The position numbers and the translations under genes are program-made. Under the pieces are notes generated by a model. The model did no database searches. It was not told the origin of the DNA and was given only the letters and a program-made list of their open reading frames with translations. From Eubacteriales bacterium (GTDB taxonomy: Bacteria > Bacillota > Clostridia > Oscillospirales > JAAYXM01), in contig JAZNAQ010000011.1 of the NCBI GenBank assembly GCA_045586595.1, forward strand, positions 4,713 to 68,712: a stretch of 64,000 bases of DNA. The letters run 5' to 3'. Of this stretch, positions 47,908 to 64,000 are shown in pieces. Each line of letters opens with the position of its first letter. The stretch's first letter is position 1.

Positions 47908-48372
47908 TTAACAACTCTCACACTTCGAACCATTCGAGCGGCGATTTGAGTTCTTTTTCATATCAAACGCAGGGTTGAATGCATAGAAGTTTTTGTAGTT
48001 CAGGTTCTCCTGAACATGACGCAACGCCTCACCGAAACGCTGGAAGTGAACTATCTCACGCTGACGAAGAAATTTTATTGGGTCGCATATATCAGGGTCG
48101 TCTATAAGGCGAAGAATATTATCATATGTCGTTCTCGCCTTCTGTTCTGCTGCAAGGTCCTCCATAAGGTCTGTTATTGGGTCACCTTTAACCTGGAAAT
48201 TTGCCGCGGTCTGCGGGAATCCTGCCGCCGCCTGCGGATACGTTCCCACTGTGTGGTCAACAAAATACACATCAAATCCTGCAGCCTTAATCTGCTCAGG
48301 CGTCAAGTTGCGCGTAAGCTGGTGGACAATAGTCGCGATCATCTCCATATGCGCAAGTTCTTCTGTACCTAC
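47908..48372 (-). pseudogene. cotJC: 5'-truncated Mn-catalase-family spore coat gene cotJC (C-terminal ~154 codons only)
   Basis: From VGTEELAHMEMIATIVHQLT onward, through KGDPITDLMEDLAAEQKARTTY and FLRQREIVHFQRF, the ORF parallels B. subtilis CotJC from DIGTEEFAHLEMIATMVYKLT onward. The roughly 65 N-terminal residues, including the first metal-binding helix, are missing. The 39 upstream codons of the ORF (48373-48489) are unrelated and have no SD. Confidence 0.75.
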
Positions 48373-48572
48373 CTTGTGAAATCTCAAGTACCCAAGTCGA
48401 AAAATGTAGTAATTCCAAGACTTTCGGGCTACTCGGCAAAGTGCCGTTACTTGAAATTCAAGGAATTCGGACAAATTCAAAACGCACATGCAATGTGAAA
48501 ATTAAAGTAAATATTTAACGGACAAGCACTACCGAAAGGTGGTGCTTTTTCTGTTTCAGGAGGTACGGAAGA

Positions 48573-49007
48573 ATGAAATTAAATTATTTTTATAAATGCG
48601 AGGCAGACCAATTTACCTTTTACCGCCTGCCGAAGATTTTAGTGGTAAATGAGATGTTTTCACACATTTCCTACGGTGCGAAGATTCTCTACGGACTACT
48701 TCTTGACAGAATGGGTCTTTCCCTTTCAAATCACTGGCACGATGAATTCGGCAGAGCATATATTATCTACAGCATTGTCGAGATTATGGAAGATATGAAC
48801 TGCTCCAAAGCAACGGCGATTAAGATGATGACCGAGCTTGAAGATGCAGGACTGCTTGAGAAAAAGCGACGAGGTCTGGGACTTGCGAATATTATTTATC
48901 TTAAAAAGTTCATTGCGATCGAAAATCAAGAAGTTCAAACTTTAGACTTCAGAAGTCAAGAAAGAAACATTCCAAGAAGTACAGAATTTGAACTTCAAGA
49001 AGTTTAA
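48573..49007 (+). CDS. RepA_N-type replication initiator protein A-like
   Basis: 144 aa. FYRLPKILV......ISYGAKILYGLLLDRMGLSLSN.W.DE.GR.YIIYSI.EIME is typical of Firmicute RepA_N domains. GGAGGT SD. Confidence 0.75.
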   Translation: MKLNYFYKCEADQFTFYRLPKILVVNEMFSHISYGAKILYGLLLDRMGLSLSNHWHDEFGRAYIIYSIVEIMEDMNCSKATAIKMMTELEDAGLLEKKRRGLGLANIIYLKKFIAIENQEVQTLDFRSQERNIPRSTEFELQEV

Positions 49008-51920: not shown

Positions 51921-51950
51921 TTGACTTTTCGACATCAGAAGTGGTATAAT
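51921..51950 (+). promoter_or_regulatory. Sigma-A-type promoter for the XRE gene and probably the downstream operon
   Basis: TTGACT (51921-51926), an 18-nt spacer, then TG-extended TATAAT (51945-51950). The inverted repeat ATGTCGA (51898-51904) / TCGACAT (51929-51935) brackets the -35. Confidence 0.6.
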
Positions 51951-52000: not shown

Positions 52001-52204
52001 ATGGCAGTTACTTATAATAAACTCTGGCATTTGCTGATCGACAGAGGTATGAAAAAGAAAGACCTGCAAGAGGCTGCAGGTCTCACAAACCACACAATGC
52101 TCAAACTCCGCAAAGACCAGGATATCACCACCGAAACCATCGGCAAGATATGCAAAGCTCTCGGTTGCACAATGGACGATATCATGGAGTTTTATGAAAG
52201 ATGA
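52001..52204 (+). CDS. XRE-family helix-turn-helix transcriptional regulator
   Basis: 67 aa. LIDRGMKKKDLQEAAGLTNHTMLKLRKDQDITTETIGKICKALGCTMDDIMEF is a Cro/CI-type HTH. AAAGGA SD. Confidence 0.88.
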   Translation: MAVTYNKLWHLLIDRGMKKKDLQEAAGLTNHTMLKLRKDQDITTETIGKICKALGCTMDDIMEFYER

Positions 52205-52261
52205 ATCACTGTACGGTTTATTGTGCAGTTATTATGAGATAATCATGCTGGAGATGTGCAC

Positions 52262-55200
52262 ATGGAAATAATTGATAATATAAATAAAAAGCTTAAAGAT
52301 GATTTGAAAATTGAAATAAAAGATGGAAGTAAGTTGGCGATTGCCGCTGCTTGCTTTTCTATCTATGCCTTTCAAGAGTTAAAAGAAGAACTCAAGAGCA
52401 TCGATGAATTACGTTTCATATTCACCTCCCCTACTTTCACAACGGAAAAAGCTAAAAAAGAAAAACGCGAATTTTATATACCTCGCCTTAACAGAGAACG
52501 TAGCCTTTATGGAACGGAATTTGAAGTAAAGCTTCGCAATGAGCTTACACAGAAAGCTATAGCCAAAGAGTGTGCTGAGTGGATTCGCGATAAGGTTACA
52601 TTCAAATCAAACATCACTAACGAAAATATGATGGGATTCATCAATGTTAATGATAAAAACTATATGCCGGTCACTGGCTTTACTACCGTTGACTTAGGTT
52701 GCGAACGAGGAAACAATGCATACAACTTTGTGCAGAAAACCGAATCTCCTTTTTCGACCACCTACATAGAGTTGTTTGAAAGCCTTTGGAATGATAAAAC
52801 GAAGCTTCAGGAAGTCACTGACGAAGTTATCGAAAACATCACGACGGCATATAACGAAAATTCTCCTGATTTCATTTACTTCGTTACTCTCTATAACATC
52901 TTCAATGAATTTCTTGAGGATATATCCGAAGACGTACTCCCCAACGAAGGAACAGGTTTCAAAGACAGCAAAATCTGGAATATGCTTTATAACTTCCAGA
53001 AGGATGCAGTTCTTGCAATTATAAATAAGCTTGAGAAATTCAACGGGTGCATTCTTGCTGATTCCGTTGGTCTCGGTAAGACATTTACAGCCCTTGCAGT
53101 AATCAAATATTACGAGTCCAGAAACAAGAGCGTTCTCGTACTTTGTCCGAAGAAACTCGCTAATAACTGGAATACATATAGGGACAACTATGTCAATAAC
53201 CCGATAGCAGAAGACCGCTTAAACTATAAAGTTCTCTACCATACTGACCTCGGTCGTGATCACGGCGAATCTAACGGAACGGATTTATCTCGTCTTCGTT
53301 GGGATACATACGATCTTGTTGTAATAGACGAATCGCACAATTTCCGTAATGGTGGAAAGCTTTCAGGTGAAGATAACGAAAAAGAAAACCGTTACCTGCG
53401 CCTTCTTAATCAAGTTATCAAAAAAGGCGTTAAGACGAAAGTTCTTATGCTTTCGGCAACACCTGTAAACAACCGTTTTAACGACCTTAAAAACCAGATA
53501 GCTCTTGCTTACGAAGGTAATTCTGATCTTATTGATGATAAATTGAATACATCTCGCTCCATAAATGAAATTTTCAGAAATGCACAGCGTGCATTCAATA
53601 TGTGGAGCGAGTGGAAACCTCAGGAGCGAACAACTGAGAAACTTCTCAAGATGCTTGATTTTGACTTCTTTGAGGTTCTCGATTCTGTTACGATTGCTCG
53701 TTCGAGAAAGCATATCAAGAAATATTATGACACCACAGATATCGGCACTTTCCCGACTCGTCTAACTCCGATTTCAAAACGGCCGCAGTTGACTGACCTT
53801 TCGGATGCAATTACTTACAACGAAATCTTCGAACATCTGATGATGCTTACATTGTCAATTTATACTCCGACGCATTATATTCTTTCAAGCAAGATTAAAA
53901 AATACGAAGAATTATACGATGATAAAAAAGTAAGCGTCGGCCTTACCCAGGCGAACCGTGAGCAAGGTATTCGACGTCTTACTGCAATCAATTTGATGAA
54001 GCGAATGGAAAGCTCTGTCTATTCGTTTAATCTCACAATGACAAGAATCAAGGACTTCATCAGCAAGACTATTGATAAAATAGATGCTTATGACCGCCAT
54101 GCTTCTGAGGTTCTTGAGTTAACAGACATTACCGATATTGAAGAATTCGACAGCGAAGACCAGAATGATGATCTTTTCTCGTTCGGTAAAAAAGTCAAAA
54201 TCGACCTTGCGGATATGGACTATGTCTCCTGGCGTGAATCACTTGTTAAGGATAAAGAAGTTCTCGAGCTTCTCACACTAATGGTTAACGATATCACTGC
54301 CGAGCATGATAGCAAGCTCCAGGAACTGTTATATATCCTCGCAAATAAGGTTAACAACCCCATCAACGAAGACAATAAGAAAATCATTATCTTCACCGCA
54401 TTCGCGGATACTGCACGCTATCTCTACGATAACGTAAGCGACTACATGAAGAAAAACTTCGGCTTGAATACAGCTATGATAACCGGCACGGTAGATGGTA
54501 AATCAACCGTAGCGGGACTTCGTAATGACCTTAATACAGTTCTTACCTGTTTCTCGCCAAAGTCGAAGGAGAGAGATTTGTTTGACTCTATTCCTAAGGT
54601 GGATATCGATATCCTCATTGCAACTGACTGTATTTCCGAAGGTCAGAACTTGCAGGACTGCGATTATCTCATCAACTATGATATCCACTGGAACCCCGTG
54701 CGCATCATTCAGCGTTTCGGGCGAATCGACCGTATTGGAAGCACGAACAGCGTTATCCAGCTTGTAAACTTCTGGCCGAATATTACGCTCGATGAGTACA
54801 TCGACCTCAAGGCGAAAGTCGAAACACGAATGAAGATTGTCGATATGACGGCTACGGGCGACGACAACATCATCAGTGAAGAGGAAAAGACTGACCTCGA
54901 ATACCGTAAAGCACAACTCAAGAAATTGCAGGAAGAAGTCGTCGATATTGAAGAAATGTCAACCGGAATTTCGATTATGGATTTAGGACTAAACGAATTC
55001 CGCCTGGACCTTCTTGATTATATAAAGACGCATCCGCACATCGAAAAAACGCCGTTCGGCTTGCACACAGTCACCGCCGCAACGGACGATATGCCGGCAG
55101 GTGTTATCTACGTGCTTAAAAATCGTACAAACAGCGTGAATATAGACAGTCAGAACAGACTTCACCCGTTCTACATGGTCTATATCAGCAATGACGGAGA

Positions 55201-55873
55201 GGTTGTATGTGACCATCTCTCGCCTAAAGCGTTGCTTGATAAGGTTCGCTTCTTGTGCAAGGGTAAAACAGAACCAATTCCGGAATTATACAAAGAATTT
55301 AACAAAGAGACCAACGACGGAAAGAACATGACGGGGCTGTCAAAACTTCTTGGTGATGCCATTGCATCTATTATCGAAGTTAAGGAAGAAAGCGATATCA
55401 ACAGCTTCCTTTCTGGTGGTCAGGTAAGCTTCTTATCGAATGAAACAAAGGGACTGGACGACTTCGAGCTCATTTGCTTTATCGTTGTAAGAGATACAGA
55501 GTTGAAGCCTGCTACAGCGCGAGATTTCCGTGTAGTTGTTGCCGGAAGTAGAAACTTTAACGATTATAACCGCTTGTCAGATGCCCTTGATAAATACCTT
55601 GCCGATAAGGACAATGTAACAATAGTCAGCGGCACTGCACGCGGCGCCGACAGAATGGGAGAGCGCTATGCCGCAGAGCATGGACTCAAAATTGAGCAAT
55701 TCCCTGCAGAATGGGGTAAGTATCATAAAGGCGCAGGACCGATAAGGAATATGCAGATGGTACAAAGCGCCGATGCAGTAGTTGCATTCTGGGATAATGA
55801 ATCAACCGGAACAAAGCACATCATTGACTGCGCAAGACAAGAAAATATTCCCTGTAAGGTAATCAGTATTTAA
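52262..55873 (+). CDS. SNF2-family helicase with an unassigned ~250-aa N-terminal region and a C-terminal SLOG (DUF2493/YspA-like) domain
   Basis: SNF2 motifs LADSVGLGKTFTA, DLVVIDESHNFRN, LMLSATPVNN and GQNLQDCDYLINYDIHWNPVRIIQRFGRIDRIGS. The last 118 aa (nt 55517-55870) read FRVVVAGSRNF...VSGTARGADRMGERYA...GAGPIRNMQMV..ADAVVAFWDNESTGTKHII, a DUF2493-type SLOG pattern. ATG at 52262 lies 9 nt after GGAG. Confidence 0.85.
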   Translation: MEIIDNINKKLKDDLKIEIKDGSKLAIAAACFSIYAFQELKEELKSIDELRFIFTSPTFTTEKAKKEKREFYIPRLNRERSLYGTEFEVKLRNELTQKAIAKECAEWIRDKVTFKSNITNENMMGFINVNDKNYMPVTGFTTVDLGCERGNNAYNFVQKTESPFSTTYIELFESLWNDKTKLQEVTDEVIENITTAYNENSPDFIYFVTLYNIFNEFLEDISEDVLPNEGTGFKDSKIWNMLYNFQKDAVLAIINKLEKFNGCILADSVGLGKTFTALAVIKYYESRNKSVLVLCPKKLANNWNTYRDNYVNNPIAEDRLNYKVLYHTDLGRDHGESNGTDLSRLRWDTYDLVVIDESHNFRNGGKLSGEDNEKENRYLRLLNQVIKKGVKTKVLMLSATPVNNRFNDLKNQIALAYEGNSDLIDDKLNTSRSINEIFRNAQRAFNMWSEWKPQERTTEKLLKMLDFDFFEVLDSVTIARSRKHIKKYYDTTDIGTFPTRLTPISKRPQLTDLSDAITYNEIFEHLMMLTLSIYTPTHYILSSKIKKYEELYDDKKVSVGLTQANREQGIRRLTAINLMKRMESSVYSFNLTMTRIKDFISKTIDKIDAYDRHASEVLELTDITDIEEFDSEDQNDDLFSFGKKVKIDLADMDYVSWRESLVKDKEVLELLTLMVNDITAEHDSKLQELLYILANKVNNPINEDNKKIIIFTAFADTARYLYDNVSDYMKKNFGLNTAMITGTVDGKSTVAGLRNDLNTVLTCFSPKSKERDLFDSIPKVDIDILIATDCISEGQNLQDCDYLINYDIHWNPVRIIQRFGRIDRIGSTNSVIQLVNFWPNITLDEYIDLKAKVETRMKIVDMTATGDDNIISEEEKTDLEYRKAQLKKLQEEVVDIEEMSTGISIMDLGLNEFRLDLLDYIKTHPHIEKTPFGLHTVTAATDDMPAGVIYVLKNRTNSVNIDSQNRLHPFYMVYISNDGEVVCDHLSPKALLDKVRFLCKGKTEPIPELYKEFNKETNDGKNMTGLSKLLGDAIASIIEVKEESDINSFLSGGQVSFLSNETKGLDDFELICFIVVRDTELKPATARDFRVVVAGSRNFNDYNRLSDALDKYLADKDNVTIVSGTARGADRMGERYAAEHGLKIEQFPAEWGKYHKGAGPIRNMQMVQSADAVVAFWDNESTGTKHIIDCARQENIPCKVISI

Positions 55874-55891: not shown

Positions 55892-56497
55892 TTGCTAAGT
55901 TTACCGAAATCCACAGAACTTAAAAAGCAACTTCCTAAAAATGCGATATATGCAAAGTTTAATATGAACAACGCACAAAAGGAAAGGTTCGATGCAGATA
56001 TTTCAAGGATAAATATCATAGCAGAAATATCACCATCCACTACTAACATCGCAAAGGGCGAAACTGTATCGTCTATTTACATCGTTCAGGTTATGCTCAA
56101 GCGCAAAGAATTTGATGAAAGAACCATAATTCAGCTTTCAAAGCTAATTGACCAGAATATGATTCTCGCTTTAGAGTTTGAGAATATGACAAAACTTGCC
56201 ATATATCACACCAAACTACTTCAAAGTGAATGGTGCGACAAGGAAGATGCAAAGATAGAACTCAAAGGTCTCAACCTCGACAAAGTATGGGAGAGCATCA
56301 TAAAACAAATCGGTGATATCGAAGTTTCGGAAGGTCTATCGCTTGATGAACAGATTTCACAAAACGAAGAAAGAGCAAAACTCGAAAAAGAAATAGCACG
56401 GCTTGAAAAACAAGCTCGTGCAGAAAAGCAGCCAAAGAAGAAATTCGAACTGGTGCAAAAGATAAATGAGTTGCGAAATATACAACGTGAGGGATAG
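55892..56497 (+). CDS. DUF4391 domain protein
   Basis: 201 aa. The N-terminus LPKSTELKKQLPKNAIYAKF..., followed by ISPSTTNIAKGETV, matches my recollection of DUF4391 proteins encoded next to SNF2 helicases and methyltransferases. TTG start after GAGGAGGTGA. Confidence 0.65.
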   Translation: MLSLPKSTELKKQLPKNAIYAKFNMNNAQKERFDADISRINIIAEISPSTTNIAKGETVSSIYIVQVMLKRKEFDERTIIQLSKLIDQNMILALEFENMTKLAIYHTKLLQSEWCDKEDAKIELKGLNLDKVWESIIKQIGDIEVSEGLSLDEQISQNEERAKLEKEIARLEKQARAEKQPKKKFELVQKINELRNIQREG

Positions 56498-56502
56498 TTT
56501 AA

Positions 56503-57357
56503 ATGGCAAGAAAAAATATTTTTCAGTTAGTAGAAGAAAATTACGATATACAAGATGAAATAAGGAAAATAAATAAACTTTTCGCTGAAGAGGATTATTT
56601 TGAGAACAATGACAATTATTATACTTTACAAAGATTAATGCGATACTACTTATTTCCGAATTGGAAATATCGCGGAACATGTCTTACCATAGAAGAATTT
56701 TTCGAACGTGTTGATGCAACTATACCAAATATGAATCGCATAAGAGAAGCCCAAATCATTAATAACTTGGAAGTTATGGAAAACTTCGTTAAATTATATT
56801 TTGATAACAGCGAAAAGTTATACGAACAAAATAAAATTCAATATTATCGAGATTTTAAATCGGTATTCTGTGAATTGATCAATACTCTCGAAAAAAGAAT
56901 GGGGCTTACCACTCGCGAATACAAAGATAAAGTCATTCTGTATCCTAAAAATGCACCGCTCGAAAAAGTTATCGATTTATGTGATGATGAGGATGTTCAG
57001 TGGGAACTTATACGATATGTAAGAGAAGATTTATCGCTAACTGAAAAAAGAAAATCTCTTGCCTTTCTTGCCACTAATCTCTACATTGAGGAAGATCGAA
57101 CCGAGAAAAATGAACACATTAAAGAGCTTGTAAAAAAAGCAGGCAACATTCTCAACAACCTACATATCCGTCATAATAATAAGACAGGAAAATGGGAAAA
57201 CAAGGCACTTGACGCACTTGATAAAAAAGATGCTATTTCTTTATGCAACATGGTATACAACGAAATGCTCACAATTGTCTTATTGAGAGAACACAAGGAA
57301 TATGAGAAGGTATACAAAGAGTTTAATAAAAAACAAAAGGAAGCACGAGCTAAATAG
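56503..57357 (+). CDS. Hypothetical protein (284 aa, predicted all-alpha, no recognisable family)
   Basis: Long ORF on the operon strand, 5 nt after the DUF4391 stop. GAGGGA SD. Rich in K/E/N/Y. Confidence 0.6.
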   Translation: MARKNIFQLVEENYDIQDEIRKINKLFAEEDYFENNDNYYTLQRLMRYYLFPNWKYRGTCLTIEEFFERVDATIPNMNRIREAQIINNLEVMENFVKLYFDNSEKLYEQNKIQYYRDFKSVFCELINTLEKRMGLTTREYKDKVILYPKNAPLEKVIDLCDDEDVQWELIRYVREDLSLTEKRKSLAFLATNLYIEEDRTEKNEHIKELVKKAGNILNNLHIRHNNKTGKWENKALDALDKKDAISLCNMVYNEMLTIVLLREHKEYEKVYKEFNKKQKEARAK

Positions 57358-57368
57358 TAGGAGACCAC

Positions 57369-58574
57369 ATGAAAACTCTTGATTTTTTTGACCCTATACC
57401 GGAATCACTGCGAAAAAGCTTGGAATTACAAAATAAAATTCAAGATAGTATGCAACCTATCCTTGAACAAGAAGAAAAAATAAAAAAGATAAGTGAAATT
57501 ACTGAAGGTGTTAAACTCGATTTGCCAAAAGCCATGTTTTCATCGCCGACTGTTGATGCTATTGCGCAGATAGAAGAAATGAACCCATATAAAGTTATAG
57601 ATGAATTAACTTCAGATGCGACCATAGCCGAAGTGGGATTAGGCAACTACGCAACGCCTATAGATATTATCGGGAATTCTGTAATGAAATTCGCAAATTA
57701 CTTTTCTGATTACCAGATAAGTTCCGGAATGTATGATGCAATTAGTACCTTTGAGAAAAGTGCTTCAATCTTCGGAAACGCAATACAAACATTTATTGAA
57801 AACGCGAGTTCCGCATTAACATCAGTAATTGAATCGCCCATGATGCAATGGTTGCAATCGTTTGACTTCACTCCTATATGGTCTTTTTTTGATAACTTTG
57901 ATCTTGAATGTGATTTTTCAGATAGATACAAAGAATTAAATGGAGCTTATCTTACCGCAATGTATGAATGTAAGTGGTTTCCGTATGCCGGATGGTCTAT
58001 TGATATACGAATGTTTTCAACCATCAGTGAAATTATATCGGCAAGTCGCGGTGCAAGTAAACGCAGAGAAAAAAGAATTGATGATGTAATTTTTGCTTAT
58101 TACACTAAAAGTGAAATAAAAAACATTAAAAGAACTTGGAAAAACTCAGACTTAGATCCGCATATAAAGAAAATATTAGGACAGGCCATAGAAGCTCATT
58201 TGCGAGGAGAATATGTGTTGACAACAACCTGTTTAGCAACTATGTGGGAAGGTTTGATACATAAAAAACTAAATGTAAAAGAAAGACTCGGCTCAAAGAA
58301 AACCAGAGAGGCATTCAAAGACCTTATAGGTGATAATGATTTCGATCCAATCTTTGCGGAGTTTTATGAAAATTTTATTGTATGTGATTGTAATTCCCCA
58401 GACGAAGTCATTGAAGGAATCCCTAATCGAAACGGTATTTCACACAGTAAGTATAAGAAGTATCCTAACAAAAAGGCTTCTCTCAATGCAATTTTGCTCA
58501 CAGATTTTATAATCGGACTTAAGCCAAAAGAAATGGTGGTAAAGAACAAAGAAGAAACGGAGATCAATATATGA
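57369..58574 (+). CDS. Hypothetical protein (401 aa) with a C-terminal HEPN-like domain (Rx4H motif)
   Basis: TAGGAG SD. The C-terminal ~170 aa is helical, with ILGQAIEAHLRGEYVLTTTCLATMWEGLI and later IPNRNGISHS (R-N-G-I-S-H at nt 58428-58445). This is the spacing and context typical of HEPN RNase domains. Confidence 0.6.
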   Translation: MKTLDFFDPIPESLRKSLELQNKIQDSMQPILEQEEKIKKISEITEGVKLDLPKAMFSSPTVDAIAQIEEMNPYKVIDELTSDATIAEVGLGNYATPIDIIGNSVMKFANYFSDYQISSGMYDAISTFEKSASIFGNAIQTFIENASSALTSVIESPMMQWLQSFDFTPIWSFFDNFDLECDFSDRYKELNGAYLTAMYECKWFPYAGWSIDIRMFSTISEIISASRGASKRREKRIDDVIFAYYTKSEIKNIKRTWKNSDLDPHIKKILGQAIEAHLRGEYVLTTTCLATMWEGLIHKKLNVKERLGSKKTREAFKDLIGDNDFDPIFAEFYENFIVCDCNSPDEVIEGIPNRNGISHSKYKKYPNKKASLNAILLTDFIIGLKPKEMVVKNKEETEINI

Positions 58575-59086
58575 AAGAGTGGAGTGCATTTTTTACTAAT
58601 CTAATTGACAAATTTGATTTCAAGGAACTTATGATTTGTCTTTTTGTTGTTTTATCTTTGATGTTAGTTCCTCGGATTAATGTTTTAAGTTTTTTAATGC
58701 CGCTTGATAGCGCGAAAAAATGGATTGTCTTTGTTTTTGTTTTAATTGCTGTATACCTTGTTTTGACTCTAATTATCCTAATATGGAAAAGTGCAAAAAA
58801 ATATAATGATCACAAACCAAAGCAACTTGCAAAAATGATGAAAAAATACGGCAAATATCTCGAGGTTTTTTATTCAAAAAACCTCGGTGAGTATTCTAAA
58901 TGTGCTTTCGATTTGTATACTGTTCCAGATGCAGTTGTCGGCAAATTGCAAGAAAATAAGATAATCTACATTGCTAATTATACTCATTCAGAGTTTGCTT
59001 TAACAGATCAAGCGAGAAAAAAACTAACGCAAAGAAGAAAGATGCTTAAGTTAATTGATAAGATTATTGTCAAGAAAAGTAAGTAG
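58571..59086 (+). CDS. Hypothetical 2-TM membrane protein (171 aa)
   Basis: The start overlaps the previous stop (ATGA), implying translational coupling. Two hydrophobic helices (LMICLFVVLSLMLVP and WIVFVFVLIAVYLVLTLIILIW) precede a basic soluble tail. Confidence 0.6.
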   Translation: MKEWSAFFTNLIDKFDFKELMICLFVVLSLMLVPRINVLSFLMPLDSAKKWIVFVFVLIAVYLVLTLIILIWKSAKKYNDHKPKQLAKMMKKYGKYLEVFYSKNLGEYSKCAFDLYTVPDAVVGKLQENKIIYIANYTHSEFALTDQARKKLTQRRKMLKLIDKIIVKKSK

Positions 59087-59098
59087 GAGGAATAAATA

Positions 59099-61105
59099 AT
59101 GGATAAACTTAAGATGCATACGCCGAACAAGGCGGATGAGAATTATAAAAAGCTTGCGGAGTTGTTTCCGAATGCGGTGACGGAGACTATTGACCCTGTT
59201 ACCGATGAGGTCGTGCGCGCTATTGATAAAGATGTTCTGATGCAGGAAATCTCTACTACTGTTGTTGAGGGCAAGGATGAGCGCTATCAGTTTACCTGGC
59301 CGGATAAGAAAAAGTCTGTTCTCCTCGCTAATGCACCTATCAATAAAACTCTCCGCCCCTGCAGAGAAGAAAGTGTAAACTTCGATACAACAGAAAACCT
59401 CTATATTGAAGGCGACAACCTTGAAGTGTTAAAGCTCTTGCAGGAAACATATCTCGGCAAGATTAAAATGATTTACATAGACCCTCCGTATAATACAGGT
59501 AATGATTTCGTGTACGAGGATGACTTTGCACAGAGTACAGATAAATACATGGCAAATAGTGGTCAGTTTGATGAAGAAGGAAATCGTCTCGTGCATAACA
59601 CAGAGAGTAATGGACGTTTTCATACGGATTGGTTAAATATGATGTATCCTCGTCTTAGAATTGCAAAAGATTTATTGACGGAGGATGGGGTTATATTTAT
59701 TTCTATTGACGATAACGAAATAGAAAACACACTGAAAATTTGCGATGATATATTCGGAGAATATAATCGCATCGCAGTACTCCTTAGAGAAGCAATTAAA
59801 GGAGGTTCGCTATCTAAAAACATCAGGAATGTACATGATTACGTTGTATGCTATGCGAAGTTTTTAGATAAAATTAATTTTGGTGGCGTAGAAACAGATG
59901 GAATTACACTTGATTTAGAAGACGAACACGGGAAATATGCTAAAGGCAGAGAGTTGAACAAATGGGGAGCTGGTTCTAGACGAGAAGATTCCCCTACAAT
60001 GTTTTACCCGATACCTGGACCTAATGGAGAAGATGTATATCCTATTAGAAATGACGGAAGCGAAGGCAGGTGGAGATTGGGAAAACAAAAGATGTTTGAA
60101 TTACTAAATGCCGACAATGCAATATTTGAACAAAGGGACGATGGTACATATATAGTCTATGAAAAACTAAGAGACGATTCACCTAAAACAAAACAGTTTA
60201 CTACATGGTTTTCTCAAGAATATATTAATGCAAAAGGAACTGAAGAATTAAAGGCGTTATTCGAAAAAGAAAGAGCAATTTTTGATTTTTCAAAACCAAC
60301 AAAGTTAATCAATGATTTATTAGTTATGAATAACGATAATGAGTGCGTGGTGCTTGACTTCTTCTCAGGCTCAGCTACAACCGCGCATGCAGTTATGCAG
60401 TTAAATGCAGAAGATGGCGGACATCGCAAGTTTATTATGGTGCAGTTGCCGGAAGAAACAGACGAAAAATCCGAAGCATATAAAGCCGGATATAAGAACA
60501 TCTGCGAAATAGGTAAAGAACGCATTCGCAGAGCCGGAAAGAAGATTCAAGATTTTTTGAGAGAAGCCGGATTGCCGTATAGAAAAGTTGTTACAGAAGG
60601 TGTGCCGTACGAAGTAAATGGAAATACGCATAAGCGAGCTGAATGGGATTCCCCGGAGTTTCCGGAAGTTGAAAATGCTTGCATTGCAAATTCGTTAGAT
60701 ATAGGTTTCCGTGTTCTCAAGTGTGATTCTTCCAACATGAAAGATGTTTATTATAATCCGCAGGATGTTGAGCTTTCTTTGTTTGGAAGCTCGGTAGATA
60801 ATATTAAAGAAGACAGAACTCCTGAAGATTTGTTGTTCCAGGTTATGCTTGATTTGGGTGTACTTCTTTCAAGCAAGATTGAAGAAACAACTATCAGCGG
60901 AAAGAAAGTATTTAATATTGCAGATAACTTCCTTATCGCTTGCTTTGATGAGAATGTAACAGAAGATGTTATAACAGAAATTGCAAAGCAAAAGCCATAT
61001 TACTTCGTAATGCGCGATAGCTCCATGGCAGATGACAACGTCGCCACTAACTTCGAGCAGATTTTTGCAACCTACAGCCCCGACACAGTAAGGAAGGTGC
61101 TGTAA
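59099..61105 (+). CDS. mod: Type III restriction-modification Mod subunit (beta-class N6-adenine/N4-cytosine DNA methyltransferase)
   Basis: 668 aa. Catalytic motif IV IYIDPPYNTGNDF comes before SAM motif I VLDFFSGSATTAHA, which is the beta-class order. The central region is variable (TRD-like). TAGGAGG SD. Confidence 0.88.
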   Translation: MDKLKMHTPNKADENYKKLAELFPNAVTETIDPVTDEVVRAIDKDVLMQEISTTVVEGKDERYQFTWPDKKKSVLLANAPINKTLRPCREESVNFDTTENLYIEGDNLEVLKLLQETYLGKIKMIYIDPPYNTGNDFVYEDDFAQSTDKYMANSGQFDEEGNRLVHNTESNGRFHTDWLNMMYPRLRIAKDLLTEDGVIFISIDDNEIENTLKICDDIFGEYNRIAVLLREAIKGGSLSKNIRNVHDYVVCYAKFLDKINFGGVETDGITLDLEDEHGKYAKGRELNKWGAGSRREDSPTMFYPIPGPNGEDVYPIRNDGSEGRWRLGKQKMFELLNADNAIFEQRDDGTYIVYEKLRDDSPKTKQFTTWFSQEYINAKGTEELKALFEKERAIFDFSKPTKLINDLLVMNNDNECVVLDFFSGSATTAHAVMQLNAEDGGHRKFIMVQLPEETDEKSEAYKAGYKNICEIGKERIRRAGKKIQDFLREAGLPYRKVVTEGVPYEVNGNTHKRAEWDSPEFPEVENACIANSLDIGFRVLKCDSSNMKDVYYNPQDVELSLFGSSVDNIKEDRTPEDLLFQVMLDLGVLLSSKIEETTISGKKVFNIADNFLIACFDENVTEDVITEIAKQKPYYFVMRDSSMADDNVATNFEQIFATYSPDTVRKVL

Positions 61106-62082
61106 TGAGTAACTATGGAACATGTCCTTACTGCCATTCGAATATAATATATTCGCAATTTGGAACCAATCAAGTCCATGAATTGATTGAGTGTCCAAGT
61201 TGTGGAAGATTTGAAATCAGGAAATTACCTTTTCAGACAGGAAAAGATATTAAAGATGAAACTGCTTCATATTTGTATTATCACTCTGAGGATAGGTTCT
61301 TAAATTTTCTTGGAGATAAGGATTTATATGAAAGTGATTATAGTCATTCAGAAGATATTTCGTATGTGTCCAGAGAAGAGATACTTGCTTTTCAACCAAA
61401 AAGTTTTGCCGAAAGAATCGACATGATATTATTAGAATTTGCCAAAAAATCTGATTTTATTGGTGAAGAAATAGTACTTTCAAAAGAGCAAACATATAGT
61501 TTGCTATTCATAAAAAGACATGATGCAGAAGGAAATCTTTTGAAAAAAGAGATAGTTTCCTCGCAATTGCGTGAAATAACTGACTATTTAGAAGAAAATA
61601 AATATACAGAAGGTTACTATCAAGATGGTGCCGTGTTTGTTTTGAAGCCTGAAGGGTGGAAAAGAGTGGACGAGTTGCAGAAAAATGCAACTGCAAACTC
61701 AAAAACTGCTTTTGTAGCAATGTCTTTTGATAAGGAAATGAAACCTATTGAAGATGCTATTAGAGCAGCAATCACAAAGTGTAAATTCGTACCGATGATT
61801 ATTAAGGACAAGGAATATAATAGGCAGATTGTTCCAGAGATACTTCATGAAATAAGACAATCAAGATTTGTTGTTGCAGAATTTACTAATCACAATAATG
61901 GTGCTTATTATGAGGCTGGATATGCTTTTGCTTTAGGAAAAGAAGTGATTCATCTTTGTAACGATGATAGTTTTGAACAAGATGCACATTTTGACGTAAA
62001 GCAAGTTAACACAATTCGCTGGAAAACTACAGAAGATTTAGAGCAAAAACTTATTAAAAGAATAAACGCAACCATATCATGA
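61105..62082 (+). CDS. Zn-ribbon protein with a C-terminal nucleoside 2-deoxyribosyltransferase-like / TIR-like Rossmannoid domain
   Basis: The ATG overlaps the mod stop (TAATG). N-terminus carries CPYC...CPSC. The C-terminus reads KTAFVAMSF...SRFVVAEFTNHNNGAYYEAGYAFALGKEVIHLC...HFDVKQVNTIRW, resembling the D/N-x-G-T/A-x-(F/Y)-E-x-G-x-A-x-A-x-G-K-x-V block of NDT-fold proteins. Confidence 0.6.
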   Translation: MSNYGTCPYCHSNIIYSQFGTNQVHELIECPSCGRFEIRKLPFQTGKDIKDETASYLYYHSEDRFLNFLGDKDLYESDYSHSEDISYVSREEILAFQPKSFAERIDMILLEFAKKSDFIGEEIVLSKEQTYSLLFIKRHDAEGNLLKKEIVSSQLREITDYLEENKYTEGYYQDGAVFVLKPEGWKRVDELQKNATANSKTAFVAMSFDKEMKPIEDAIRAAITKCKFVPMIIKDKEYNRQIVPEILHEIRQSRFVVAEFTNHNNGAYYEAGYAFALGKEVIHLCNDDSFEQDAHFDVKQVNTIRWKTTEDLEQKLIKRINATIS

Positions 62083-62099: not shown

Positions 62100-64000
62100 A
62101 TGAAATTTAACTTTAAAATACAACAATATCAAAGCGATGCTGTTGAGGCGGTCTGCAGTGTATTTGCAGGGCAAGGCTTCAATAGCGGTATAGGATATCG
62201 CAGGGACTTGGGTAATGTTAAGCCGAACAACAACGAGCAAATCAAGCTTTCTTCTGCTGATGAGTATGGCGAGGAGCTTGACCTTGCAAATGATTCGGGA
62301 TTTAAGAATGATGAGGTTTATCTTTCTAATGATACTCTTCTTCAGAACATCCACGAATTGCAGAATGCCAATAACATTAAGCTTTCCCCTTCCCTTGTCA
62401 AGGATTTAGGCAGATGCTCTCTTGATGTTGAAATGGAAACAGGTACAGGAAAGACGTATGTTTACATAAAGACTATGTTTGAGCTTAACAAGAGATATGG
62501 CTGGAGTAAGTTTATCGTTGTTGTTCCGTCTATTGCTATCCGTGAGGGCGTTGCCAAAACTTTCGAGATTACGGCTGACCACTTCATGGAGCATTACGGA
62601 AAGAAAGCGAGATTCTTTGTCTATGACAGCTCTAACCTTAATGCGATTGATAACTTCTCCGCAAGCTCGGGCATCAATGTTATGATAATCAACACCCAGG
62701 CTTTTGCATCTTCCCTTAAAGAGGATGGCAAGAGCAAGGAAGCGAGAATTATCTATTCAAAGCGCGATGAATTCCAGTCGCGCAGACCGATTGATGTTAT
62801 CAAGGCGAACAGACCCATTATCATCCTCGACGAGCCTCAGAAGATGGGCGGCGATGTAACACAGAAGGCGCTCAAGAACTTTAATCCGTTATTTACGCTC
62901 AATTATTCAGCTACACACAAGACACAACATAATCTTGTGTATGTTCTTGATGCGCTTGATGCTTACAACAAGCGTCTTGTAAAGAAAATTGAGGTTAAGG
63001 GCTTTGAAGTTAAGAACTTCCGTGGAACGGACAAGTATTTGTTCTTAGAAAGTATAGTTCTTTCTCCAAAGAAGCCACCTATGGCTAAAATCGAGCTTGA
63101 AATTGGTTACAACAAATCCATCAACCGCGAAACTCGCATCCTCGGTGTTGGTGATAATCTATTTTATGTTTCGCAGGAGATGGAGCAATACAGAGGTTAT
63201 TCTATTTCCGAGATTGACCCGATTCGCGGATGCGTAACCTTCACTAACGGTGAGGTTATAAGTACAGGCGATGTTGTTGGCGATGTTTCGGAAAAGGATA
63301 TGCGCAGAATTCAGATTCGAGAAACTATTCTTTCGCACTTTGAGAAAGAGGAAAAACTCTTCAATCGCGGAATTAAAACGCTTTCGCTTTTCTTCATAGA
63401 CGAGGTTGCGAAGTACCGTCAGTATGATGAAAATGGCGATGAAGTGCTTGGGGAATATGGTCGCATATTTGAAGAAGAGTATCTGAGCATCCTTAACGAG
63501 AATATAACGATATACGGAACAGAGTACCAGGAATACCTCAAAAAGACCGGTTCGGATATCCCGAAAACGCATAAGGGATATTTCAGTATTGATAAGAAAA
63601 CCGGAAGAAGTGTTGATAGTGCCTTAAAACGTGGAAGTGAGTTCTCCGATGATATTTCTGCGTATGACCTTATCCTGAAGAATAAGGAGAGACTTCTTTC
63701 TTTTGATGAGCCGACGAGGTTTATCTTCTCTCACTCTGCGCTTCGCGAAGGCTGGGACAACCCGAACGTATTCCAGATATGCACATTAAGGCACTCCGAC
63801 AGTAACACTGCAAAGCGGCAAGAGGTTGGTCGTGGGCTTCGTCTTTGCGTCAATCAGCAAGGTAACCGTATGGATGCGGAAACCTGCGGCGAATTGGTAC
63901 ATGAGATCAATGTGCTCACAGTTATTGCAAACGAGAGTTATAAAACTTTCGTTTCGGATTTGCAGTCTGATATCAAAGCAGTTCTTTATGACAGACCGCT
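62100..64000 (+). CDS. res: Type III restriction enzyme Res subunit (SF2 helicase-nuclease); N-terminal ~633 codons, continues beyond the window
   Basis: My own translation from the ATG at 62100 (after AGGTGA) gives MKFNFKIQQYQSDAVEAV...LDVEMETGTGKTYVY (Walker A)...IIILDEPQKMGG (DEPQ box)...NYSATH...EGWDNPNVFQI... The frame is open to 64000, so it is absent from the ORF track. Confidence 0.88.
   Translation, partial: MKFNFKIQQYQSDAVEAVCSVFAGQGFNSGIGYRRDLGNVKPNNNEQIKLSSADEYGEELDLANDSGFKNDEVYLSNDTLLQNIHELQNANNIKLSPSLVKDLGRCSLDVEMETGTGKTYVYIKTMFELNKRYGWSKFIVVVPSIAIREGVAKTFEITADHFMEHYGKKARFFVYDSSNLNAIDNFSASSGINVMIINTQAFASSLKEDGKSKEARIIYSKRDEFQSRRPIDVIKANRPIIILDEPQKMGGDVTQKALKNFNPLFTLNYSATHKTQHNLVYVLDALDAYNKRLVKKIEVKGFEVKNFRGTDKYLFLESIVLSPKKPPMAKIELEIGYNKSINRETRILGVGDNLFYVSQEMEQYRGYSISEIDPIRGCVTFTNGEVISTGDVVGDVSEKDMRRIQIRETILSHFEKEEKLFNRGIKTLSLFFIDEVAKYRQYDENGDEVLGEYGRIFEEEYLSILNENITIYGTEYQEYLKKTGSDIPKTHKGYFSIDKKTGRSVDSALKRGSEFSDDISAYDLILKNKERLLSFDEPTRFIFSHSALREGWDNPNVFQICTLRHSDSNTAKRQEVGRGLRLCVNQQGNRMDAETCGELVHEINVLTVIANESYKTFVSDLQSDIKAVLYDRP

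Follow-up and report, generated by a model that had tools for sequence, protein, structure and literature searches.

HEPN domains are recognised by an Rx4-6H motif with a polar residue (N, H or D) directly after the arginine; the motif lies where helix 3 ends or in the loop leading to helix 4. Two alpha-hairpins make up their four-helix up-down fold, helices 2 and 3 are separated by an insert, and helix 2 carries a conserved acidic residue close to the active site (PMC3710099). At least 16 clades of HEPN genes are linked to restriction-modification (R-M) systems, and by analogy with PrrC and its partner EcoprrI they have been read as a second, suicidal line of defence (PMC3710099). A guilt-by-embedding survey (Payne et al. 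2024) covered Hma, BREX, DISARM and type I R-M systems, not type III (bioRxiv 10.1101/2024.01.29.577857). The same work describes HEC-08, a single-gene system with a DUF3644 HEPN domain that is embedded in a defence system and whose defence was abolished by mutation of the motif histidine (bioRxiv 10.1101/2024.01.29.577857). Here we report the analysis of a 64,000-nucleotide stretch of an Eubacteriales bacterium genome (contig JAZNAQ010000011.1, positions 4,713 to 68,712, called the window below), in which three AT-rich genes, named A, B and C, are located between a DUF4391 gene and the methyltransferase gene mod of a restriction operon. The window was compared with about 50 related loci, designated by L numbers.

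We consider it moderately probable that A, B and C are three independent occupants of one cargo site, slot 1 (DUF4391 to Mod), of a mobile operon resembling type III systems, and that B encodes a latent HEPN-like RNase. The three open reading frames (ORFs) that the first-pass annotation of the window had placed between DUF4391 and mod are present on the + strand (Table 1). They are contiguous, with a gap of 11 nucleotides between A and B and an overlap of 4 nucleotides between B and C. This ATGA overlap, in which the ATG of C overlaps the TGA of B, had also been pointed out and is real in the junction sequence; a GGAG is found 8 nucleotides 5' of the ATG. The AT-richness that had been judged by eye was computed: the guanine-plus-cytosine (GC) content of the A-B-C stretch (56503-59086) is 33.0% (A 31.9%, B 34.7%, C 30.0%), compared with 41.3% for SNF2, 39.0% for Mod, 42.5% for Res and 43.2% for the entire window. 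This places the stretch at the 0.16 percentile among all windows of 2584 bp, practically the lowest in 64 kb, and fits cargo acquired separately. The enrichment in K, N, I, F and E that was claimed together with it does modestly exceed that of SNF2 and Mod (fractions of 0.437 for A, 0.392 for B and 0.368 for C, against 0.356 and 0.349), but it is only partly distinctive, since DUF4391 reaches 0.443. Repeats around A-B-C or around the B-C insertion were limited to short chance matches. Both A and B are under purifying selection, with a ratio of nonsynonymous to synonymous substitution rates (dN/dS) of ~0.12-0.13 for B and, for A, a proportion of nonsynonymous differences (pN) of 0.13-0.27 versus 0.62-0.81 for synonymous ones (pS), dS being saturated in two of three comparisons. 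For C, the chance of a random open frame of 171 codons at 30% GC was estimated from base composition at ~1e-6.

The case for a HEPN-like domain in B comes from its motif, its conservation and its modelled fold. The sequence IPNRNGISHS (R-x4-H) noticed in the first pass was confirmed, and the helix said to precede it, AIEAHLRGEYVLTTTCLATMWEGLI, is located at residues 273-297 of B. The family consensus is P-x-R354-[N/H]-x3-H359-[S/G], and it is kept in members with 22-36% identity to B. R354 is present in ~264 of 265 complete C-terminal domains (one has K), H359 in all 219 aligned sequences, and position 355 is occupied solely by N (108) or H (112), so that the family has both the Rx4-6H motif and the polar residue after the arginine. 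An acidic residue in helix 2 is found as well: E294 is located in helix 282-301, the second of the hairpin 264-278/282-301, and its column contains 204 E and 14 Q among 220 sequences. The hairpin is followed by a helical insert (309-337), the motif loop (352-359) and a final helix (368-383). Other conserved motifs of B are QAxEAxxRGEY, WEG (which includes E294) and YP-x-x-K-x-x-LNA. In the region that precedes the core, W203 and P205 are invariant and D238, Y245 and W257 nearly so, and the SRGxSKRRxxRID stretch is basic. Conservation is very uneven along the protein, mean pairwise identity in the family being 22% for the N-terminal 150 residues and 60% for residues 151-390. The N-terminal region may be regarded as a candidate sensor or docking part.

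In the full-length model of B the predicted local distance difference test score (pLDDT) is below 50 for residues 44-180. In the full-length model 157 low-confidence residues hampered the fold search, and the C-terminal domain was then remodelled alone. The resulting, better AlphaFold2 model (pLDDT 81, predicted template modelling score 0.77) is all-helical with a HEPN-compatible helix order; its pLDDT is 73-95 in the helices from about residue 181 and 54-65 for residues 151-180. Searched with Foldseek against BFVD, it gave two significant matches. The first is A0A8S5MX66, a 'DUF4209 domain-containing protein' (E 1.8e-4, probability 1.00, 237 columns), and the second an uncharacterised Siphoviridae protein (E 7.3e-4). 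DUF4209 (C6orf70) is a HEPN family that has been noted in R-M-related operons and is predicted to be catalytically active (PMC3710099). Against the PDB, Csm6 (6tug) tops the searches with both models, at a best E of 0.55, and none of the matches is significant. The small HEPN proteins 1ufb, 1o3u and 1wol are found lower in both PDB lists, with template modelling scores (TM-scores) of ~0.47-0.50 over the target; 2hsb (TM-score 0.57), Las1 and a HEPN toxin are also listed, only in the search with the full-length model. Taken together, motif and models make it likely that the C-terminal domain of B is HEPN-like and probably catalytic. The HEPN layout proposed in the first pass thus stands as regards the motif, E294, the all-helical fold and the DUF4209 match, but a curated profile or a significant PDB fold does not come with it.

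The B family is large, with 292 clusters at 90% identity and 625 at 50% identity (E up to 1e-3). Its taxonomically labelled members come mainly from gut Clostridia and Erysipelotrichia, and Bacillus plasmids and SPbeta-like phages carry distant relatives. B has no match in Pfam (E up to 0.1), NCBIfam, PHROG or PADLOC, and 40 divergent relatives (22-36% identity) hit no consistent Pfam family and have no PADLOC match. Two members deserve mention for themselves. L020 (4277-5395), a contig assigned to Bacteroides by binning, has a B homologue broken into two ORFs of 94 and 254 residues, likely a pseudogene or an assembly frameshift. The phi3T_86 protein of Bacillus phage phi3T (L050 3860-4573) is a distant relative of the C-terminal domain of B (24.7% identity, E 2e-3); it occurs in SPbeta-like phages, a few genes 5' of arbitrium aimR-aimP-aimX, and has no Pfam match.

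The genomic contexts of B are dominated by restriction genes. B occurs in ~15 distinct SNF2-DUF4391-Mod-Res operons, two IMG/VR contigs included, and in ~9 of them it lies directly 5' of mod, its stop frequently abutting or overlapping the mod start. Outside these operons it is located between hsdMS and hsdR in L023, before an HsdM_N gene in L019, before or overlapping a McrB-like AAA_5+EVE gene in L024, downstream of HsdR and GmrSD in L030 and L034, and before genes that are weakly DUF4365-like, just under the Pfam cutoff, in L005 and L018. Other neighbours of B are PIN_12 (L017), HipA_C (L029, L040), TOTE/AbiEii (L033) and AbiH (Bacillus cereus plasmid). Embedding in an R-M operon, as known for PrrC and RloC, is thus seen in the window, in the ~15 type III operons and in L023, L019 and L024, and for B it matches what is already known of R-M-linked HEPN genes. 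As a separate observation, a WapI-like (PF24716) immunity-type gene is located 5' of B in L007 and L036-L039.

The related loci also show how the three genes move. A is present without B in L008, L009, L011 and L043-L049, and B without A in more than 20 contexts, L036-L039 among them. A and B occur together only in L007 and L013, in reversed order, where B is followed by three genes and then by A and Mod. The trio as a unit, which the first-pass annotation had assumed, is present in none of the ~50 related loci. L049 has the same operon as the window minus B and C, and since A and mod are adjacent in such operons without B, the B-C pair reads as an insertion. A comparable event is visible between L007 and L008. 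These loci are 97% identical downstream of the slot and ~90% upstream of it, and they differ by a clean indel of 2.66 kb (L007 3185-5841) that contains a B homologue and a 451-residue seven-transmembrane protein with a Cys/His-rich tail. In the closest relatives of B this 451-residue protein, which is unrelated to C, is located 3' of B and moves with it. The claim of a module nested inside the R-M operon therefore holds in part: B is repeatedly embedded and is AT-rich like cargo, but the unit of three genes was not recovered.

How might such a gene work? B is a single-gene module composed of a fast-evolving helical N-terminus of ~150 residues, a conserved helical region and a predicted HEPN-like four-helix core. 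It would act as a metal-independent RNase that remains latent in healthy cells. The trigger could be an infection that passes restriction, for instance if the enzyme were disabled by an anti-restriction factor of the phage. Once activated, B would cleave host or phage RNA (tRNA or mRNA) and abort the infection, and its variable N-terminus could be the sensing or docking part. This mode would be similar to that of PrrC with EcoprrI and of the AbiJ and Abi_C genes found in slot 2 (Mod to Res) of sister operons. C is an orphan membrane protein that is translationally coupled to B and possibly a lineage-specific partner. From the features described above we infer the RNase activity, the toxicity, the trigger and the coupling to restriction, as well as any role of A or C. 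The idea of a nested second line of defence, already put forward in the first pass, is plausible by analogy; that such a line acts when restriction fails is not new, being the established PrrC paradigm.

Compared with these described systems, B resembles PrrC/EcoprrI (and RloC) in its C-terminal Rx4H HEPN-type motif and in the position of its gene inside a restriction operon, as in L023 between hsdMS and hsdR. The proposed logic would also be alike, a latent RNase being freed when restriction is neutralised (PMC3710099). However, PrrC and RloC have an N-terminal ABC-ATPase, whereas B has a variable helical N-terminus and no detectable sequence similarity to them, and type Ic R-M is the setting of PrrC, while B occurs with enzymes of types I, III and IV. 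AbiJ and Abi_C are single-gene proteins with a variable N-terminus and a C-terminal HEPN domain and occur in the same operon family, but they sit in slot 2 and B in slot 1, and B has no Pfam AbiJ_NTD or Abi_C match. The best significant structural match to B is DUF4209/C6orf70 (ERMARD), with 18% identity to the phage DUF4209 protein. The DUF4209 entry of Pfam has a RNxxxHG-type motif, and B has R[N/H]xxxH[S/G]. The DUF4209 profile PF13910 did not match B, nor is it among the 25 families shown of the 53 that match the 40 relatives; with this and the 18% identity, B is at most a distant sister family of DUF4209. Like B, HEC-08 is encoded by a single gene that is embedded in a multi-gene defence system, and the logic of its discovery is also applicable to B. 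HEC-08, which comes from Hma systems, has an N-terminal HEPN domain and zinc fingers, whereas in B the HEPN-like core is C-terminal and the gene is in restriction loci; the HEC and PDC models of PADLOC 2.0 match neither B nor its 40 relatives. DARNA/PD-T7-3 is a stand-alone HEPN tRNase with a large helical sensor domain, and Csm6 (6TUG) is the closest PDB match, as for B. In contrast to B, DARNA has its HEPN domain at the N-terminus, responds to single-stranded DNA bound by SSB and has not been reported in R-M operons; PADLOC revealed no sequence similarity between the two.

Several results weigh against a latent HEPN-like RNase carried as cargo, and they have to be set beside the evidence above. 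B lacks the ABC-ATPase regulatory domain of PrrC and RloC, as no P-loop or ABC domain is detected in it by Pfam, NCBIfam or PADLOC. None of the HEPN sequence profiles in Pfam matches B, and among the 40 divergent relatives a single member matches HEPN_RiboL-PSP (E 0.027), with no other HEPN match. Sequence searches of the PDB with B and with the B-family profiles A1 and A2 gave nothing relevant, only coiled-coil or chance matches. Neither Foldseek search gave a significant PDB fold match (best E 0.55), so that the structural case rests on two predicted viral structures. An hhalign comparison of the C-terminal domain with Abi_C and AbiJ alignments gave no signal, although this null result is uninformative since each template contained 3 proteins, with an effective number of sequences (Neff) of ~1.5. 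In L014, L017, L029, L033 and L040 no restriction gene adjoins B within the fetched sequence. Finally, no cognate antitoxin or inhibitor recurs beside B.

Among the other explanations, B could be a non-catalytic accessory or regulatory subunit of Mod/Res or HsdM/R, such as an adaptor or a modulator that binds nucleic acids. The abutting or overlapping of the B stop with the mod start in many loci suggests translational coupling, B accompanies enzymes of types I, III and IV, and some HEPN domains, e.g. MtlR, are indeed non-catalytic binders (PMC3710099). Nevertheless we judge this improbable. In HEPN families without catalysis the Rx4-6H motif has typically been lost, but in the B family both R and H are practically invariant; moreover, B also occurs away from any methyltransferase (L017, L029, L040), and many orthologous operons do without it.

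It is likewise unlikely that the C-terminal domain is something other than a HEPN RNase, with the R..H pair used for a different chemistry or for structure and the fold match reflecting a generic helical bundle. The exact consensus (R, N/H, x3, H, small residue) is kept down to ~22% identity, and the motif lies in the loop before the last helix, like in HEPN domains. The sole significant fold matches include a protein of the DUF4209/HEPN family, and the highest-ranked PDB matches are HEPN proteins in both searches. These points stand against the observations on which a non-HEPN domain could be argued: every PDB match of Foldseek has E >0.5, no HEPN profile of Pfam matches, and helical bundles draw spurious fold matches, metavinculin, ApoA-IV and influenza M1 being also listed.

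The setting of the operon could point in still another direction. It is carried on an integrated element with RepA_N, ParB, TnpV and NikA-like genes, toxins of the HEPN type are frequent in toxin-antitoxin systems (PMC3710099), B has HipA_C and AbiEii toxin genes as neighbours in L029, L033 and L040, and the WapI-like gene of L007 and L036 is of immunity type. B, with or without C, might thus be an addiction or toxin module that stabilises the element or the operon and is not triggered by phage. This we find quite unlikely, for there is no conserved antitoxin partner and no MNT gene beside B, C is unique to the window, and B is found chiefly inside restriction operons, not in maintenance loci of plasmids or of integrative and conjugative elements. 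Least probable of all, and largely refuted by the context survey, is that A, B and C form one co-acquired abortive-infection unit made of a sensor, a HEPN RNase and a membrane suicide effector: their contiguity on one strand, their shared AT-richness relative to the core genes and the membrane protein that also lies 3' of B in its closest relatives speak for it, but the trio does not recur, A and B are mostly found apart and in L007 and L013 are separated by three genes in reversed order, and C has no detectable homologue.

Returning to B as a latent HEPN-like RNase in slot 1, a broader proposal would join several of the observations, although we regard it in its entirety as doubtful. The B family would be made of general "restriction guards", for which this operon, carried by an integrative and conjugative element, would have dedicated exchange slots between DUF4391 and Mod and between Mod and Res. 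As guards, the hypervariable N-termini may dock onto or monitor the type I, III or IV machine in which they are embedded, or sense phage anti-restriction proteins. In the lineage to which the window belongs, B may also have recruited unrelated membrane proteins, so that B and C (or the seven-transmembrane protein in the relatives) may form, by analogy, a two-component effector of an RNase and a membrane protein. Cas13b with Csx28 is a comparable pair of an RNase and a membrane effector.

Should B prove to be an active RNase, the HEPN defence proteins would gain a large family, of at least 625 clusters at 50% identity, that is missing from Pfam, NCBIfam, PHROGs and PADLOC. "Guilt-by-embedding" would then also reach restriction systems of types III and IV. 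With two exchangeable slots, the SNF2-DUF4391-Mod-Res operon would provide a compact natural test bed for abortive-infection effectors layered on restriction, which could show whether such effectors guard restriction. B represents an uncatalogued family of a known kind and brings no new principle. PrrC already established the principle, and generalisations followed in 2013 and 2024; what is gained is a candidate family and a tidy model locus.

Gene A belongs to a highly conserved, unannotated family of 220 clusters with 65-79% identity and the invariant motif NNLHIRHNNxTGKWE. Its usual order is DUF4391-A-Mod, as in L044, L045, L046 and L049 (in L048 the sequence stops behind A), with the stop of A adjoining or overlapping the start of the methyltransferase gene. 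In view of this tight coupling to methyltransferase genes, A may be an accessory factor or a regulator in modification and restriction. It occupies slot 1 semi-regularly, independently of B and usually without it. Searches with A gave no match in Pfam, NCBIfam, PADLOC or PHROG, nor with tblastn in the phage and plasmid collections; a Pfam scan of 22 relatives revealed no consistent family, a profile (alignment A4) run against PDB sequences had coiled-coil or chance matches only, and by hhalign A and B are unrelated. A metagenome scan for A returned 8 loci. In L009 (8001-13296) the gene next to the A homologue, which overlaps its start, encodes an MmeI-family (type IIL) enzyme, and the protein encoded after that has a weak match to HNH. 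With A before MmeI in this locus, A is not specifically tied to the type III Mod.

Gene C encodes a protein with two predicted membrane helices and a basic tail of ~96 residues with a net charge of +14. Pfam, NCBIfam, PHROG and PADLOC gave no match to it above threshold, and among 5.8 billion proteins it matched only itself. The tblastn search of the phage and plasmid collections gave no match, and relaxed blastp against all ORFs of L001-L041 gave no homologue, with one chance match at E 5.8. As C has no detectable homologue, its description as a transmembrane suicide effector in the first pass was a guess. C may be a lineage-specific membrane partner of B, as could be proposed from its translational coupling to B and from the indel with B and the seven-transmembrane protein in relatives. 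C resembles the superinfection-exclusion protein SieB in being small, with two N-terminal membrane helices and a cytoplasmic tail. Its residues 25-135 align to positions 6-118 of the 147 of the Pfam SieB profile (PF14163). The score of 16 bits falls short of the gathering cutoff, 26 bits (E 0.0097), and the aligned region has a membrane-biased composition, so that membership of C in SieB is not demonstrable. A small membrane gene as a general follower of B was rejected, most relatives having mod or another gene directly downstream.

The features of the locus are collected in Table 1.

Table 1. Features of the restriction operon and of genes A, B and C in the window
Feature	Position	Strand	Length or residues	Evidence and remarks
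Strong promoter-like site	51921-51950			TTGACT-18-TATAAT with extended TG
HTH_26 (Cro/C1-type) regulator	52001-52204	+		Operon head; Pfam PF13443, E 4e-20
SNF2-type helicase	52256-55873	+		Core gene; PADLOC PDLC01075 'HKD+Snf2', E 1.1e-127; Pfam SNF2-rel_dom, Helicase_C, YAcAr
DUF4391 gene	55892-56497	+		Core gene, left edge of slot 1; Pfam PF14335, E 1.3e-32; beside SNF2 in related loci
Gene A	56503-57357	+	284 aa	ORF list
Gene B	57369-58574	+	401 aa	ORF list
B, N-terminal region	57369-57818	+	residues 1-150	Helical, poorly conserved, low-confidence model
B, family-specific conserved helical region	57819-58157	+	residues 151-263	WFPY and SRGxSKRRxxRID motifs
B, HEPN-like core	58158-58523	+	residues 264-385	DSSP of models, Foldseek
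B, predicted catalytic motif R354-N-G-I-S-H359	58428-58445	+		R354 codon 58428-58430, H359 codon 58443-58445
Gene C	58571-59086	+	171 aa	ORF list
C, first membrane helix	58628-58684	+	residues 20-38	Hydropathy
C, second membrane helix	58724-58780	+	residues 52-70	Hydropathy
Mod methyltransferase, type III	59099-61105	+		Core gene, right edge of slot 1; PADLOC MTase_III, E 2.7e-216; Pfam N6_N4_Mtase
Zn-ribbon + nucleoside-2-deoxyribosyltransferase/TIR-like protein	61105-62082	+	325 aa	Between mod and res; Pfam PF05014 at cutoff
Res, type III	62100-64000	+		Core gene; frame open to the window end, gene cut there

The order of the host operon is HTH (helix-turn-helix regulator) - SNF2 - DUF4391 - A - B - C - Mod - Zn-ribbon/TIR-like - Res. 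No convincing terminator or strong internal promoter was found on the + strand in 52.4-64 kb, which is consistent with one long operon. The operon has Mod together with a Res helicase-nuclease, as expected for type III R-M, and the Res shares 62-84% identity with the ResIII+RE_endonuc proteins found in related loci, short partial matches giving lower values. What makes the operon atypical for type III is the additional SNF2/HKD helicase together with DUF4391. Its backbone recurs on many contigs of Clostridia, Erysipelotrichia and some Bacteroides assemblies, and the HTH-SNF2-DUF4391-Mod-Res operon is widespread on mobile elements of Firmicutes. As DUF4391 is rarely mentioned in the literature searched, the operon system looks uncharacterised. 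Across the loci, slot 1 is occupied by A, B, WapI-like, KAP NTPase, the seven-transmembrane protein, a weakly DUF4365-like protein just under the Pfam cutoff, and several proteins of unknown function. Slot 2 contains Abi_C, AbiJ_NTD3/4, RhuM or the Zn-TIR-like gene in sister operons. The Zn-ribbon/TIR-like gene of the window is AT-rich like A-B-C (GC 32.6%, GC at third codon positions 23%), and its product matches a TIR effector in PADLOC (E 6.7e-6) and phrog_16139 (E 1.6e-37). This gene probably encodes another embedded effector.

The operon is carried by an integrated mobile element that begins near 48.5 kb, with RepA_N, ParB_N, TnpV and RHH (ribbon-helix-helix)/NikA-like genes 5' of the HTH_26 regulator. 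At its left end, a Mn-catalase ORF on the minus strand (47908-48600, 193 residues versus a profile of 284 positions) looks truncated, and RepA_N begins at 48573; the truncated gene may mark the integration site. The SNF2 helicase has a C-terminal YspA/SLOG (YAcAr) domain at residues 1092-1156. As this is missing from a Holdemania orthologue of 1077 residues, it can be seen as a variable appendage resembling a nucleotide sensor. Finally, the mod gene of Holdemania massiliensis is split into 342 and 302 residues in the NCBI assembly (L001 9114-10969) and is intact, with 618 residues, in the Logan assembly (L002 9114-10970). The split may reflect a frameshift or else phase variation of this type III methyltransferase.

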